Positions 16,435 to 25,388 of a stretch of 64,000 nucleotides of DNA are shown piece after piece. The DNA is from Planctomycetia bacterium (GTDB lineage Bacteria; Planctomycetota; Planctomycetia; Pirellulales; PNKZ01). Positions within the stretch are counted from its first letter, which is position 1. Each line of letters begins with the position of its first letter. A program made the translations under genes and the position numbers. The notes beneath the pieces are model-generated. The model was given only the letters and a program-made list of their open reading frames with translations, was not told the origin of the DNA and ran no database searches. The stretch is taken from positions 44,165 through 108,164 of the forward strand of contig JAIOPP010000100.1 of assembly GCA_021413845.1 (NCBI GenBank), in the 5' to 3' direction.

Positions 16435-16766
16435 CCATCTAAGATCGAAGTCGACGAAGCCACGGCGGGAAAAGCGTCAGTGAACTTCTGTATCCCATTC
16501 GATCGTTTTTCAATGCTCGCGTGAAGTACCGCGACCGGCCGGCAAGGGTTATCCGCCGAGCGTTGTAGATCGCTATTCGTTTCTGAAACCGCTGCAACCG
16601 GCCTAGTTACGGCGAATTCCCCGGCTTGAAGGGTTCGGACGAAGTTCGTAGAATGTTCGTTTCTCGGCAGAAGCGCCTTTCGCGTCAATGAGCCGGTTTT
16701 TTATCGCGCCCCAGCACTAGATCGTGTCCGTTGGGGTCGCGTGATCGATTTTCGGAGACTTTGAAG

Positions 16767-17105
16767 ATGACGATGGACAAGAGCTTGCGTATCCGTGCCG
16801 GAAGCACGCGGTCGCGCAACGTGTTGACCCGAGCCGAGCGGATCGAGCAAATGAAGGGAGCCGATACCTTCGCTGAAGATTCGACGCGCCCTTACGGGCT
16901 GCCGAAGACCCGCGTCGTGAAGCTCTCGATGAAAAAGAAGAAGAAGGTCAAGGAAGCGGAAGAAGACGATCCGAAGGCCGCCAAGGGTGCGAAGCCGGCC
17001 GCCGGCGCGAAGCCCGCTGCTGCCGCAGCCAAACCGGCCGCCGGTGCGAAGCCTGCCGCCGCCGCTGCTGCCAAACCGGCCGCAAAGCCTGCCGCTAAGA
17101 AGTAA
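16767..17105 (+). CDS. PVC-superphylum small basic signature protein with K/A/P-rich tail
   Basis: MTMDKSL...RNVLTRAERI...YGLPKTRV, then poly-K and AKPAA repeats; GGAG RBS. Confidence 0.88.
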   Translation: MTMDKSLRIRAGSTRSRNVLTRAERIEQMKGADTFAEDSTRPYGLPKTRVVKLSMKKKKKVKEAEEDDPKAAKGAKPAAGAKPAAAAAKPAAGAKPAAAAAAKPAAKPAAKK

Positions 17106-17276
17106 TCGCTCGAAAAAATACTCCGAAGTCGTGCCGCCGGCTTGGTCGTGCGGCGCATCGATCGGACGGTGTACGATGGAAGAGCCGCGTTCGGCAGCGG
17201 AGCGAATCTACTACGGTTCGCTTTGCCGCCGAGCGCGGCTTTTCGCACGTATCGACAACTCCTGAGGACTCTCGCG

Positions 17277-18551
17277 ATGCGCGTGAAGCTCGAATACGGA
17301 AAGACCGGGCTCGAAGTCGAGTTGCCGAGTGAGCGAGTCGTACGCACGCTGGCGTATAAGAACGCCGTGCCGACGGCTGAGCCTGAGCTTGAGTTGGAGC
17401 GGGTGCTGCGCGAGCCGATCGGTTCTCGTGCGCTCGGCGAGCTTGCGCGCGGGCGTAAGAGCGCGTGTATTCTCATTTGCGACCGTACGCGACCGGTGCC
17501 GAATGAGCTGCTGCTGACCCCGATTTTGCGCGAGCTCGAAGCGGCCGGCATCGCCCGAGAACGGATCACGATTCTCGTCGCGACCGGTTTGCATCGGCCG
17601 AATGAAGGAGAAGAGCTCGTCGAGCTTGTCGGCCGGCGAATCGCAGAGACGTATCGTTGCGAGAATCATTTCGGTAAAGATCGGGACTCGCATACCTACC
17701 TCGGCGATAGCCCGCACGGCGTCCCCATTTGGATCGATTCGCGCTACATCGACGCCGAACTCAAGATCACGGTCGGCTTGATCGAGCCGCACTTCATGGC
17801 CGGCTTCTCGGGCGGCAGGAAGCTCATCTGCCCCGGCATTGCGGCATTGGAAACGATCAAGGCTTGGCATAGTCCTCGGTTTCTCGAACACCCCAACGCG
17901 ACGAGCGGAGTGCTGGCGGGGAATCCGGTGCATGAAGAAAACACCTGGATCGCAAAGAAGGCCGGGTGCGACTTCATCGTCAACGTCGTGATCGACGCCC
18001 TGCGTCGGCCGCTTTGCTTCGTCGCCGGCGATATGATCGAGGCGTTCGAGGCCGGTGTGCGATTCGTGCGCGGCGTGGTCGTCGACACGATGCCGGCCGA
18101 AGCGGATATCGTCGTCACGAGCGGGGCGGGCTATCCGCTCGACACGACGTTTTATCAAGCCGTCAAAGGAATGGTCGGCGCGATGTCGGTCGTGCGGCAA
18201 GGTGGGACGATCATCATCGCCGCCGGCCTGACGGAAGGGATCGGTAGTCCCGAGTTTTGCGGACTGTTCGACGACAACGGGACGCTCGAAGGTTTCGTCG
18301 AGCGGATCGTCACGACCGATTACTTCGTGATGGATCAATGGCAGATGGAAGAACTTGCCAAAGTGCGGCGCAAGGCGAAGGTGAAGATCGTGAGCGATGG
18401 CTTGCCGCGCGCGACGCTCGATCGGTTGTTCGTCGAGAGTGCGGAGAGCGTCGAGGCGGCCGTCGCAGCATCGCTCGCGGAGTACGGCGCCGAAGCGACG
18501 ATCGCCGTGATTCCGAAGGGGCCGTACGTGCTGGCCCAAGTCGGCGCGTAG
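17277..18551 (+). CDS. larA: Nickel-pincer-dependent lactate racemase family protein
   Basis: [48 protein letters not shown]. Confidence 0.9.
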
Positions 18552-18573: not shown

Positions 18574-19059
18574 CTATTCCGGTTTTCCGAAGGTTGCGAG
18601 TTCGTCGCCGCTGAGGCGAAACAAGCGCCAGTCGGTCATCTGCTTCGCTCCGAGCCCTTCGTAGAAACGAATCGCCGGCTCGTTCCAATCCAGCGCCGTC
18701 CATTCGACCCGACCGCAACGCCGCTCGACGGCGATCTCGGCGATCCGTTTCAGCAAGAGCTTGCCGAGCCCGACTCCGCGTGCCGCCGGGCGAACATACA
18801 GATCTTCCAAATACAAGCCAGGACGACCGACGAAGGTCGAGTAGTTGTGAAGGTATAAGGCGAAACCCAGCGGTTCGTCGTCGACGGTGCCGAGCAGGGC
18901 TTCGCAATAAGGTCGCGGGCCGAAGAGGGCTGCCCGTAAGTCGGCTTCCACGGCAACGACCGCGTGCCGGAGCCGTTCGTAGTCGGCTAGCTCGCAAATG
19001 AGCGTATGCAGCAATGGGATATCGTCGGGAAGAGCCGCACGGACGGCGAGAGCAGGCAT
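18574..19059 (-). CDS. GNAT N-acetyltransferase (diamine acetyltransferase-like)
   Basis: LYLEDLYVRPAARGVGLG, WTALDWNEPAIRFY. Confidence 0.92.
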   Translation of the reverse strand: MPALAVRAALPDDIPLLHTLICELADYERLRHAVVAVEADLRAALFGPRPYCEALLGTVDDEPLGFALYLHNYSTFVGRPGLYLEDLYVRPAARGVGLGKLLLKRIAEIAVERRCGRVEWTALDWNEPAIRFYEGLGAKQMTDWRLFRLSGDELATFGKPE

Positions 19060-19084
19060 CGATCGATTCCGAAGTCGAATAAAT

Positions 19085-19120
19085 AAAAAAGGGCCCTCGA
19101 CACGGCTGTCGAGGGCCCTT
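19085..19120 (-). terminator. Intrinsic terminator of the 19191-20399 gene
   Basis: Perfect 12-bp stem GGGCCCTCGACA/TGTCGAGGGCCC with a 4-nt loop, followed on the minus strand by TTTTTT. Confidence 0.88.
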
Positions 19121-19190
19121 GGATTCTATTGCGCAACTGCGCGATCCGAAAGTCAGGTAGATCGCGAGATGCTTGACGGAAGCGTAGTCG

Positions 19191-20399
19191 TTAGCGAATG
19201 CCCGACGTCGGCGACGCGGACATCATCGAAGCGGAGTGCATCGACAACGGGTTCCGAACGGCCGCGTGAACCGGTGAGGAGTTTGCCCATTCACGTTGCG
19301 GTTCGTAGCGACGCGTGAACGGAGTCGTCGTCGGCACGGGGCGGAACTCGTTCGGGAAGAACGTCTCGGCGACGGTCTTCAAGAAGCGGCATTCCATCGA
19401 ATCGGCGTTTTCGGTAACCACGCGATCGAGCAGTTCACGCATCATCGCTTTGCCGCGCGGCCAACGAACATCGACCACGGTCGAGGCGTCTTCGAGGAGT
19501 TGATAGATGCGTGCGCGAGTGAGCCGCATCCGCATCGCTGCTTTGCGAACGCTCAAAGCAGGGCCGTCGAAGCCGAGGCGGCCGCGCAACATCGTGGCCG
19601 TTTGCGTTCCGGCATCGACGTCGATTTGCTCGATGATCGGTTCGACCAAGGCTTGACGAAGCAACTCGCTGGACGGCAGCGACTTGGCGCCGATCAGTTC
19701 TTGCATCCGCATTTCCAAGCGTTCGATTCGTTCCGGAGTGAGACGCACTTGCACTCGCCCGTCGGTCGGCTGACCGTCGAGCTGCGAATGCAGCTGGCCG
19801 AAAATCGTGACGACGCAACGGACTCGCTTCTCGCCGTGCGTTTTCAACTTGCGAATTTCAGCAAGCGTCAGGCCGGCGTAGGTCTCGAGCGGAACGCTCC
19901 AAATGACGCGCGGAAGCTCGTGCAACGAAGCGGCGAAGCAACCGAGAGGTTCGTGGCCCAAGCGATGCGTGATGATCGTCGAGCGCCAGGTGGCCCAAGT
20001 GACTTCCGAGATATTCGAAGGGTCGCCGATATGGGTGACGGTCGTTGCGGGAGCCCCCACGGCAACCGAGGTGATTTGCGGTGCGACATCCTCCAAGCGT
20101 TCTTTCTGCAGCTCTTCGGTATGCAGAGCTCGGTCGAGCAACTTGAGAAGCGAAAGCATTTTCTTTTGGCCGATGCCGGGCACCGCTGCGAGCGAGTCGT
20201 AAGGGGTGCGCAGCAAATCGCCGAGGGAGCGATGTAAGAGAGCTCGCGGAAGCCGACGATCGGCCGGGAGAGCCCAATCGTAAAGCGGATGATTCAACTG
20301 GGGGGCGTAGCGATCAGTGAGCAGCAGATTGCGAATCTTCTCGAAGCGGGCGGCTAGTTCGAAACGCATTTGCCGAGGGGAAGCTGAATGCTTAATCAT
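19191..20399 (-). CDS. Hypothetical regulator: two alphaCTD/HhH-like repeats plus a sigma70 region-4-like HTH
   Basis: AGGAG RBS before ATG 20399; SLGDLLRTPYDSLAAVPGIGQKKM; LTLAEIRKLKTHGEKRV; MLRGRLGFDGPALSVRKAAMRMRLTRARIYQL. Confidence 0.7.
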   Translation of the reverse strand: MIKHSASPRQMRFELAARFEKIRNLLLTDRYAPQLNHPLYDWALPADRRLPRALLHRSLGDLLRTPYDSLAAVPGIGQKKMLSLLKLLDRALHTEELQKERLEDVAPQITSVAVGAPATTVTHIGDPSNISEVTWATWRSTIITHRLGHEPLGCFAASLHELPRVIWSVPLETYAGLTLAEIRKLKTHGEKRVRCVVTIFGQLHSQLDGQPTDGRVQVRLTPERIERLEMRMQELIGAKSLPSSELLRQALVEPIIEQIDVDAGTQTATMLRGRLGFDGPALSVRKAAMRMRLTRARIYQLLEDASTVVDVRWPRGKAMMRELLDRVVTENADSMECRFLKTVAETFFPNEFRPVPTTTPFTRRYEPQREWANSSPVHAAVRNPLSMHSASMMSASPTSGIR

Positions 20400-20505
20400 G
20401 TGCGGGACTCCTGCCCAAAAAACCAGCATCGATCGTCGTGAAACTATGCATCCGCCTGTCGTAAGTCGTTTGGATTCACGATCTTCCAACGACATGGAGA
20501 CTGTT

Positions 20506-20523
20506 AGGCAAAGTCTGTGCCAA
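20506..20523 (-). promoter_or_regulatory. sigma54 (-24/-12) promoter
   Basis: Minus strand reads TTGGCACAGACTTTGCCT, matching TGGCAC-N5-TTGC with GG-N10-GC spacing, about 110 nt upstream of ATG 20399. Confidence 0.75.
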
Positions 20524-20852
20524 AAATCACTATGCCCGAATTAAAGATCGGCTTACTTCCCGTTTGGGTTCCATGAGCTTCCTATGCGAGTAGCGATATT
20601 CGAGACAGCATGAAATAAGGACTCGAAGATTGGGGTAGTCATTCACGGTCGAAGCGGCGGCATGCTCACGCGGAGAAAATTTGCGCGCGCGTCGTAGGTA
20701 TCCCGAAGCGACGGAACCGCACATAATCAACCCGCTAACAATCCGCCGGCCCGCGCTGAATGGATCAAACTGCTGAGTTGATCAAGCGTGGCCACCGCTG
20801 CTCGTTCATCTGCCCCACCATCCGCCTCAATCACACTTGGGAGGACATGCCG

Positions 20853-22136
20853 ATGTCGCTCGATCGTCGCGAGTTTATGAATCGTTCTTTGGCTGCGGGC
20901 ATGGTCGCCGGATGCGCGACGTTTACCGGCTACGAAAAGAAAACGCGCGCCGCGAGTCCGAACGAGAAGATCGTGGTCGGTGTGATGGGGCTCGGCCGAG
21001 GCAAGCAACTCGTCGACACGTTCTCGCAGAGTCCGAACGCGATCGTCGAGTACGTTTGCGATGTCGATTCGCGCCGCTTGCCGGCCGCCGCCAGCTTGGT
21101 GACGAAGAACGGCGGCAATACGCCGCAACAGATCGGCGACTTCCGCAAGATTCTCGACGATAAGAAAGTCGACGCACTCGTCATCGCGGCTCCCGACCAT
21201 TGGCACGCTCCCACCACGATCTTGGCTTGCAATGCCGGGAAGCATGTCTACTGCGTAAAGCCGGCGAGCCACAACGCACAAGAAGGGGAATGGATGGTGC
21301 AAACGGCGCGGAAGCAAAACCGCGTCGTGCAACTCGGGACGCAGCGCCGCAGCATGCCGTCGTATATCGAAGGGATCAAGCGACTGAAGGCCGGGGCGAT
21401 CGGCAAGCCGCTCTTGGCGCGATCGTTCTATTTCAATCCTCGCCCGAGCATTAAGAAGGGGGCCGATGCCGCGGTGCCCGAGTGGTTGAACTACGACTTG
21501 TGGCAAGGCCCGGCGCCGGAGCGCGGTTATCGCGACAACGTCGTTCATTACAACTGGCACTGGCTCTGGCATTGGGGAACGGCCGAGCTCGGCAACAACG
21601 GCATTCACATGATCGACATTTGCCGCTGGGGCCTGGGGGTCGACTATGCGCAGCACATCACGACCGGCGGCGGCCGCTATCGCTACGACGATGATCAGCA
21701 AACGCCCGACACGAGCATCACGACGTTCGATTTCGGCGGCCAATCGATCTGTTGGGAAGGGCGCAGCTTCTACAAACCGATCGATAACGAGATCAAATAC
21801 GAAGCGGCGTTCTTCGGCGAAAACGGCTCGATGACGTTCGATCAGACGAAGTACAAAGTCTACGATGCCGACGGCAAGGTGATCGAAGAAGAGAAGTTCA
21901 CCGGGGGCGACGCACCGCACATCGAGAATTTTCTCGCTTGCGTGCGCGACGGTAAACGCCCGAACGCCGACATCGAAGAAGGGCACAAGAGCACGCTCTT
22001 ATGCCATCTCGGCAACATGGCCTACCGCACCGGCCAAGCGATCACGCCCGACCCGACGACGCATAAGCCGAACAACGCCGATGCGCAAAAAATGTGGGGC
22101 CGAGAGTATCGCGCCGGGTGGGAACCGAAGGTGTAG
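20853..22136 (+). CDS. Tat-exported Gfo/Idh/MocA oxidoreductase
   Basis: DRREF twin-arginine signal, GLGRG, APDHWH, AGKHVYCVKP, GTQRRS; GGAGGA RBS. Confidence 0.92.
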   Translation: MSLDRREFMNRSLAAGMVAGCATFTGYEKKTRAASPNEKIVVGVMGLGRGKQLVDTFSQSPNAIVEYVCDVDSRRLPAAASLVTKNGGNTPQQIGDFRKILDDKKVDALVIAAPDHWHAPTTILACNAGKHVYCVKPASHNAQEGEWMVQTARKQNRVVQLGTQRRSMPSYIEGIKRLKAGAIGKPLLARSFYFNPRPSIKKGADAAVPEWLNYDLWQGPAPERGYRDNVVHYNWHWLWHWGTAELGNNGIHMIDICRWGLGVDYAQHITTGGGRYRYDDDQQTPDTSITTFDFGGQSICWEGRSFYKPIDNEIKYEAAFFGENGSMTFDQTKYKVYDADGKVIEEEKFTGGDAPHIENFLACVRDGKRPNADIEEGHKSTLLCHLGNMAYRTGQAITPDPTTHKPNNADAQKMWGREYRAGWEPKV

Positions 22137-22151
22137 TGAAGTTTACTATCG

Positions 22152-24538
<2,387 letters not shown>

Positions 24539-24542
<4 letters not shown>

Positions 24543-25111
24543 GTCGCTTCCTCCGCCAGTTCCTTGCGGAGCCACGCGCGGATCATCGTCCATTCCGATT
24601 CGACGGTTCGCTTGGAAACTTTCAGCACCGTCGCCACTTCCTCGACGGTCAGACCGCCGAAGAACCGCAACTCGACGATCTTCGCTTGCCGCGCGTCGAT
24701 GACCGCCAGTTTCTCCAGCGCATCCTCGACCCTGAGCACATCTTCATCATGGCTGATCACCAAAGTGTCGGGATGCAGCGGCTCTCGCTTGCGGTCTCCG
24801 CCGCGCTTCCGCCGATTCTTCGCGCGCGCATGATCGACGAGCAATTGCCGCATGATTTTCGCCGCGGTCGCGAAGAAGTGAGCCCGCTGCTCGAAGTTGA
24901 CGTTCTCATGCTCGACGAGCGCGAGGTACGCCTTATGGACTAAGGCCGTCGGTTGCAGGGTATGGGCTCGGCGTTCGTGCCGAAACTGTCGGCGCGCCAT
25001 GTCGCGCAACTCGTCGTAGACGAGCGCGAACAACTGATCGGCGGCATGCGTGTCGCCCCGATTCAGTCGTTGCAGTGCTTGCGTGATTTCCGCTTTCGAT
25101 TCGTCGGCCAC
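24539..25111 (-). CDS. ECF sigma factor, kinase-associated planctomycete type (TIGR02999-like)
   Basis: LVYDELRDMA, HTLQPTALVH, RQLLVDHARAKNRRKRGG, VELRFFGGLTVEE; GAGGAG RBS before GTG 25111. Confidence 0.92.
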
Positions 25112-25388
25112 GCGCAATCTCCTCGGCTCAAGCGCTTACCCATCCAAGTTTTAGAATCAGCGAGTTGTCCCATCAAAGAGGCGCGATTAGATCGTCATTC
25201 TATTTAATTGTCGCGAATTCGGCTGGTTTTCCGCTCCCGACTGCGGGTTTCCCTCGTCGCCGACGCAGTGATTCATAGGGGGCAAGGAAATACGCCCCGA
25301 ATTGTAACACGGCAGTAGGGGGTGTACCTCCGGAATTGCGAATGCCGTGATGAACCTATTTGAGCCCTTTATTGCGAGTTGATTCGAT

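Follow-up and report, generated by a model that had tools for sequence, protein, structure and literature searches.

An unannotated, stand-alone gene family of the Pirellulales that joins two HhH repeats to a homologue of sigma70 region 4

What is the role of a free-standing gene whose product resembles the promoter-reading parts of RNA polymerase, and which itself lies behind a sigma54-type promoter? The question is raised by a 402-aa ORF, here called P0001, in a window of 64,000 nt (the whole stretch of DNA that was analysed) from a Planctomycetia bacterium (Pirellulales; PNKZ01; assembly GCA_021413845.1, JAIOPP010000100.1:44,165-108,164, forward strand). An earlier note had described a complete unit of sigma54 box, RBS, ORF and terminator, and all four are indeed in place (Table 1), as are the three peptides that it quoted from the ORF. 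Neither Pfam nor NCBIfam gives P0001 a match above cut-off, and no enzyme or sensor domain was detected in it; its AlphaFold2 model (mean pLDDT 86) is ordered in three blocks of helices, and its C-terminal tail is basic. We read the protein as a sigma70 region-4 domain combined with two HhH repeats, the latter likely of alphaCTD origin.

Table 1. Features of the P0001 gene and protein, in positions of the window
Feature	Position	Strand	Detail
Sigma54-type -24/-12 box TTGGCACAGACTTTGC, TTGGCAC-N5-TTGC (GG-N10-GC)	20508..20523	(-)	consensus match and close-clade conservation
Predicted 5' leader, ~97 nt	20400..20496	(-)	TSS at ~20496 predicted by the -12 rule
RBS AGGAG	20408..20412	(-)	8 nt 5' of ATG; CAGG invariant in the close-clade leader alignment
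402-aa ORF P0001, unannotated family protein	19191..20399	(-)	ATG at 20399; start Met common to close homologues
Repeat 1, aa 8-95, HhH domain with alphaCTD-like fold	20115..20378	(-)	turn PGIGQKK; model of the repeat alone has pLDDT 94.5
Repeat 2, aa 128-208, diverged HhH repeat	19776..20018	(-)	turn KTHGEKR; homologous to repeat 1
Third domain, aa 222-352, sigma70 region-4-like HTH	19344..19736	(-)	HTH aa 283-303 with helix TRARIYQ; a conserved RWPxG and two helices follow
Intrinsic-terminator-like hairpin and T run	19082..19120	(-)	perfect 14 bp, 4-nt loop; hairpin plus T run at 19120-19089

The P0001 gene stands alone. No conserved co-oriented partner was found across the loci compared; a glycosyltransferase gene is convergent with it in 30 loci, and the genes upstream are divergent or distant. 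In the window it is followed, beyond the terminator, by a GNAT acetyltransferase gene at 18574-19059 (-), and at 20760-22136 (+) there is a divergent Gfo/Idh/MocA oxidoreductase gene, which is conserved beside the P0001 gene in the close clade. Further out the window contains a PVC-type small basic protein with a PAAK-repeat tail (16731-17105 (+); TIGR04137, above cut-off), a LarA-family racemase (17142-18551 (+)), and a stretch at 22152-25117 (-) with an ECF sigma factor (Sigma70_ECF) and, immediately after it, an ORF whose translation looks like a membrane Ser/Thr kinase.

Homologues of P0001 numbered 211 among 8000 scored candidates, and a separate search gave 529 representatives at E<=0.001; those that carry a name are called 'hypothetical' and come from Pirellulales and Planctomycetota; one member, DSM3645_00005, belongs to the cultured Blastopirellula marina DSM 3645. 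A profile search found the gene in 173 of the 301 genomes of the window's order, mostly in single copy (the genome of the window has one), and did not find it in the other 128, among them one family at 0/44. Outside the order it is scarce: in a sample of the phylum it was present in 3/3 genomes of the same order vs 0/397 other genomes, and in other orders of the same class in 1/90. A quick tree largely groups the sequences by bacterial family. This is an unannotated, mostly single-copy gene family of the window's order.

The earlier note saw a resemblance to sigma70 region 4 in the third domain, and the resemblance can now be called homology. The domain aligns with region 4 of group-1 sigma factors at 87% in hhalign, and the bridge is made by longer relatives (~720-830 aa) that are collinear with P0001 over aa 18-348 (29% identity, E 3e-50). 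Of the four long relatives scanned, three score above the Pfam cut-off for Sigma70_r4 and one is short of it by 0.2 bit; the short family itself falls below. A profile of the long forms reaches SigA in the PDB at E 4.8e-9 and the P0001 gene at 9.6e-72, and its third domain scores 97% against group-1 region 4 and 99.6% against the short family (hhalign). These sequence comparisons make the third domain a genuine homologue of sigma70 region 4, with the long forms as the transitive link.

Homology does not mean the same reading of DNA. The recognition helix of the short family is TRAR(V/I)YQ (T90 R95 A90 R96 x Y97 Q92 % in 248 sequences), while TRER(V/I)RQ is kept in 23/23 long forms listed. Numbered from the aligned ranges of P0001, the long forms and SigA, the position of sigma70 E585 is Ala (90%) and that of R588 is Tyr (97%) in the short family, with Arg kept at R584 (95%). 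Passages of PMC5101437 describe R584 and E585 of sigma70 as contacting bases at -32/-33. With its helix rewired from TRERxRQ to TRARxYQ, P0001 is unlikely to be a plain mimic that reads the -35 element, as had been proposed. The absence of a sigma2 domain, on the other hand, was rightly noted earlier: the family and long-form profiles reach 0.2% against a sigma2 profile built from six sigma factors of the same genome (hhalign), and there are no Pfam sigma2 matches among the families shown. P0001 was considered as a sigma factor of the sigma70 family and rejected, since no region 2 was found in it, even though region 4 is homologous.

The internal duplication reported for the first half of the protein is not detected when P0001 is compared with itself by BLASTP, but it is clear between family profiles of repeat 1 and repeat 2 (hhalign 93-95%, E 5e-8 to 3e-7). 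The repeats are HhH domains, and an alphaCTD origin is likely. When the model of repeat 1 was searched with Foldseek, the top 8 rows were all RNA polymerase alpha chains (four named as alphaCTD, and four ~300-aa chains of polymerase complexes that we assigned to alpha from their size), all of them weak matches (E 0.4-4.2; none below 0.001); on isolated alphaCTDs 58-60 residues superpose at 2.6-3.4 A, with TM by target 0.47-0.60. In hhalign against an alphaCTD profile, repeat 1 scores 28% and repeat 2 3%, with reversed controls below 1%, and a pooled repeat profile scores 64% (E 6.5e-5). Neighbours of aa 25-210 in the Atlas are RNA_pol_A_CTD clusters, the best at 0.87, which is a lead only. More generic HhH proteins are close as well, as the PDB sequence search puts ERCC1 HhH slightly ahead of RpoA (E 0.13 vs 0.39) and also returns ComEA HhH; in Pfam, HHH_5 appears in 41/66 members and RNA_pol_A_CTD (PF03118) in 3/66 at E<=1 (best 0.16), the latter in no case above its cut-off. 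The view of the repeats as alphaCTD-like HhH domains is favoured by the ranking of the RpoA chains in the fold search for repeat 1, but not by the strength of the scores or by the Pfam cut-off.

Both repeats are basic (pI 10.3 for repeat 1 and 8.8 for repeat 2), and the hairpin residues are very well kept in 248 sequences: G77 100%, K79 93%, G189 100% and K191 98%. With R265/N294/K298 mapped on the N-x-G-x-K turn, the K298 equivalent is kept, the N294 position is Gly or Thr, and R265 has no confident counterpart, the position of the first alphaCTD helix being a loop with DRRLP or LPRVIW. In passages of PMC5101437 these three alphaCTD residues are given as UP contacts. The proposal that the repeats read UP elements in the manner of alphaCTD is for this reason unsupported as it stands, since the lysine of the HhH is present but the helix with R265 has no clear counterpart.

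The family has several variant forms. Four relatives (P0201, P0209, P0220 and P0247) have three repeats instead of two, as judged by eye, and the HTH is degenerate in the first three of them. Divergent paralogues at L218:4131-6608, L219:2779-3853 and L221:4061-6503 (genomes G420 and G569) are partly in tandem; their HTH is degenerate, and their sigma54 boxes have one mismatch. Because the HTH is degenerate in these three-repeat relatives and in the divergent paralogues, which keep the HhH repeats, DNA reading by the sigma4 domain is not essential in all members. In 3/4 of the paralogue regions fetched there are large PATR (passenger-associated-transport-repeat) proteins divergent from the paralogues, and the paralogues beside them may regulate adhesin-like genes. 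The long forms (L216:2073-4226 in genome G713, and P0243 and P0269-P0289) have a canonical sigma4 helix and a conserved C-terminal region of 400 aa, to which there was no Pfam or PDB match. They are rare and patchy, and none was found in full length among 300 genomes of the phylum.

The window gene had been placed under sigma54 control, with the expectation that orthologues would keep the box. The pattern TTGGCACAGACTTTGC has one match in the window vs 0.02 expected (2/100 shuffles), and the site is the sole occurrence of TTGGCAC-N5-TTGC in the 7.08-Mb genome. The shorter TGGCAC-N5-TTGC is not enriched genome-wide (4 sites vs 5-12 for wrong spacings), so a single site proves little, and conservation is the real evidence. 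In the close clade the box lies ~120 nt upstream in 8/8 loci, the window counted, seven of them perfect and none with more than one mismatch; its GG and GC columns are invariant in the eight aligned leaders, and these loci have neither a sigma54 box on the reverse strand nor a sigma70-type pattern. The genome itself encodes rpoN and has 20 matches to the sigma54-activator domain. Predicted sigma54 regulons have been reported in Planctomycetia, in passages of PMC12316311 that do not mention the P0001 gene.

Outside the window's family the picture is another one. Among 51 loci, 46 have TTGAC-N18-20-AnAAT within 600 nt, a pattern that was derived in part from loci in which it was then counted; the reverse strand gives 5, and 0.003 per 600 nt would be expected from the window's own genome. 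The same loci, which are related, partly picked as best scorers, and counted after dropping duplicates and those without upstream DNA, include 0/51 with a perfect sigma54 box and 3/51 with a one-mismatch box. Conservation of the box is thus confined to the window's bacterial family, and with a sigma70-type promoter in front of most of the orthologues examined, sigma54 control is not supported as a general property of the gene. To judge from these upstream sequences, the promoter class of one orthologous gene looks to differ by lineage, sigma54-type in the window's family and housekeeping-type in most relatives examined. The divergent paralogues of the window's family are mixed: the box is perfect in L074 and L076, has one mismatch in L079, L080, L085, L218 and L219, and is absent at some other loci, e.g. 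L068, L069, L072, L073, L075, L082 and L086.

The leader is conserved too, and carries AGGCGGATGC at 20457-20448 (-); an RNA element or a site bound by a protein could lie behind this. A possible hairpin around it pairs TCGTGAA (20481-20475) with TTCACGA (20442-20436), both (-), and its covariation is weak (two-sided change in 3/19 pairs, covariation term +0.23). No palindromic operator was found near the promoters of the orthologues.

How could such a protein work? The reading that we prefer, and to which we would give an even chance, is that P0001 is a stand-alone DNA-binding transcription regulator made from promoter-reading modules of the polymerase, with target sites of its own, where it would occlude or redirect the holoenzyme. 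The major-groove site read by its sigma4-type HTH would differ from TTGACA, given the fixed Ala and Tyr at the positions of E585 and R588, and the adjoining backbone or minor groove would be held by the two basic HhH repeats, in the way that alphaCTD lies beside sigma4 on promoter DNA. Without sigma2 it could not open DNA, so by default it would sit on the upstream half of its target promoters, where it would block or redirect the holoenzyme. In a protein without a sensor domain, activity likely depends on how much of it is made, from a housekeeping-type promoter in most lineages and, in the window's family, from a sigma54 promoter that would be gated by an activator. The family probably descends from a longer multidomain protein of the alphaCTD-sigma4 kind through loss of the 400 residues at the C-terminus, a direction of change that we propose.

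An unlikely alternative is that P0001 is a sigma appropriator or RNA polymerase cofactor, whose sigma4-like domain would replace sigma4 on the beta-flap tip and whose alphaCTD-like arms would help to bring the holoenzyme to promoters with a non-standard -35 element. The full-length model matches chimeras that join SigA region 4 to the beta-flap tip (prob 1.00, TM by target 0.62-0.64, E 0.27-0.36), and the RLG motif is kept (R274 94%, L275 89%, G276 82% in 248 sequences). The RpoA of the order itself, moreover, ends in a hairpin with an acidic turn, N(F/L)G-E/D, in 26/26 of the RpoA loci listed (L186-L215), which would leave room for a surrogate; in the wider phylum the hairpin has K/R in 13/14 of the likely RpoA frames listed, and the acidic hairpin may weaken UP-element binding in this class. 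The acidic turn is however also found in five genomes without a detected gene of the P0001 family and in one genome outside the order, and does not co-vary with the gene. The start of region 4.1, L-x-x-R-E in the sigma factors of the same genome, is DxG in the P0001 family, the C-terminal tail is replaced by RWPxG and helices, and there is no sigma2 that could hold P0001 on the core.

Two other proteins with alphaCTD domains were seen during this work: a short stand-alone alphaCTD protein in most genomes of the order (L095, G000:C8:13620-13829; frames of ~90-230 aa), and a ~450-aa protein with two alphaCTDs and an N-terminus that looks TPR-like by eye, found across the phylum (L092, G000:C83:40978-41430).

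There is also a small chance that the likeness to alphaCTD is of superfamily level only and that P0001 is a non-specific DNA-binding or nucleoid-type protein with generic HhH repeats. The commonest Pfam match, HHH_5, the ERCC1 and ComEA matches, the basic tail and the strong-looking housekeeping-type promoter of 46/51 orthologues would all fit, but RpoA chains outrank all other HhH proteins in the structure search, the Atlas lead points to RNA_pol_A_CTD clusters, and a recognition helix conserved at 90-97% suggests a specific partner. We are more doubtful of a protein decoy that soaks up activators, NusA or anti-sigma factors of alphaCTD and sigma4 with no need for DNA. Such a decoy would explain why both activator-contact modules are in one chain, why the base-reading Glu is lost and why paralogues drop the HTH consensus and keep the HhH repeats; the best-kept residues are nevertheless DNA-facing (Gly and Lys of the HhH, R295, R297, Q300), and the repeats match the alphaCTD profile of their own genome so poorly (3-28%) that mimicry of its contact surface is doubtful. 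That P0001 belongs, like other alphaCTD-bearing conflict proteins, to a defence or mobile system as an accessory component is very improbable. Passages of PMC12839542 do give BREX PglW an alphaCTD-like domain followed by wHTH modules, and the long forms are rare and patchy, but P0001 has no PADLOC match and a stable stand-alone context, nuclease or methylase genes do not recur among the neighbour clusters listed, and the quick tree largely follows bacterial family.

The earlier note knew of no characterised protein with this layout, but the layout is not unique. Uncharacterised multidomain proteins with RNA_pol_A_CTD (PF03118) and Sigma70_r4 (PF04545), some also with HARE-HTH, are in the databases from several phyla, and Aravind and Iyer reportedly discussed alphaCTD-sigma4 fusions in 2012. 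They have alphaCTD-type HhH repeats followed by sigma4, without sigma2, an order of modules that P0001 likely shares, and the Atlas neighbours of P0001 among them score 0.89-0.94; one, P0290 (2x PF03118 and PF04545), is reached by the long-form profile via its sigma4 part only. The P0001 family differs in passing neither Pfam cut-off, its repeats included, in its rewired recognition helix, in having no long C-terminal part, and in its stable existence as a stand-alone gene within one order. We would class it as a compact, lineage-fixed new variant of the uncharacterised alphaCTD-sigma4 proteins. The literature search found no paper on the P0001 family or on the function of alphaCTD-plus-sigma4 proteins, and the passages of PMC10853773 contain nothing on this layout.

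Compared with better known systems, P0001 shares with region 4 of SigA/RpoD a homologous HTH with RLG...LTRxR..Q, and differs by the missing sigma2, Ala at E585, Tyr at R588 and a remodelled region 4.1. On the alphaCTD of RpoA, repeat 1 superposes in the HhH core, and the Gly and Lys of the hairpin are kept in the repeats, whereas the extra N-terminal helices, the loop in place of the first helix and the missing link to an alphaNTD set them apart. The AsiA and MotA proteins of phage T4 are sigma appropriators or sigma4 mimics that change -35 recognition. P0001 would likewise alter -35 recognition without being a sigma factor, but it is one chromosomal protein that carries the modules, and no viral structural match to it was found. 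BREX PglW is alike in that, according to passages of PMC12839542, an alphaCTD-like helical domain serves to bind DNA in a protein other than RNA polymerase; P0001 differs in that kinase, nuclease and ATPase domains are missing, as is a BREX context.

A bolder picture, which we hold to be improbable, is that of a chromosomal 'half-holoenzyme' with two alphaCTD arms and a re-specified sigma4, which would dock on RNA polymerase or on promoter DNA and swap the -35/UP code of the housekeeping holoenzyme throughout the order. In the window's family it would have come under sigma54 control and expanded next to adhesin-like genes, to form a relay from sigma54 to sigma70. The P0001 family in any case offers a compact, stand-alone and mostly single-copy version of the alphaCTD-plus-sigma4 proteins, and because Blastopirellula marina DSM 3645, which is in culture, has a member, the function of such proteins becomes testable. 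It also provides one orthologous gene with a clean difference in promoter class between lineages, sigma70-type vs sigma54-type. If P0001 binds RNA polymerase, it would represent a new cellular route by which promoter recognition is re-specified and no new sigma factor is needed.
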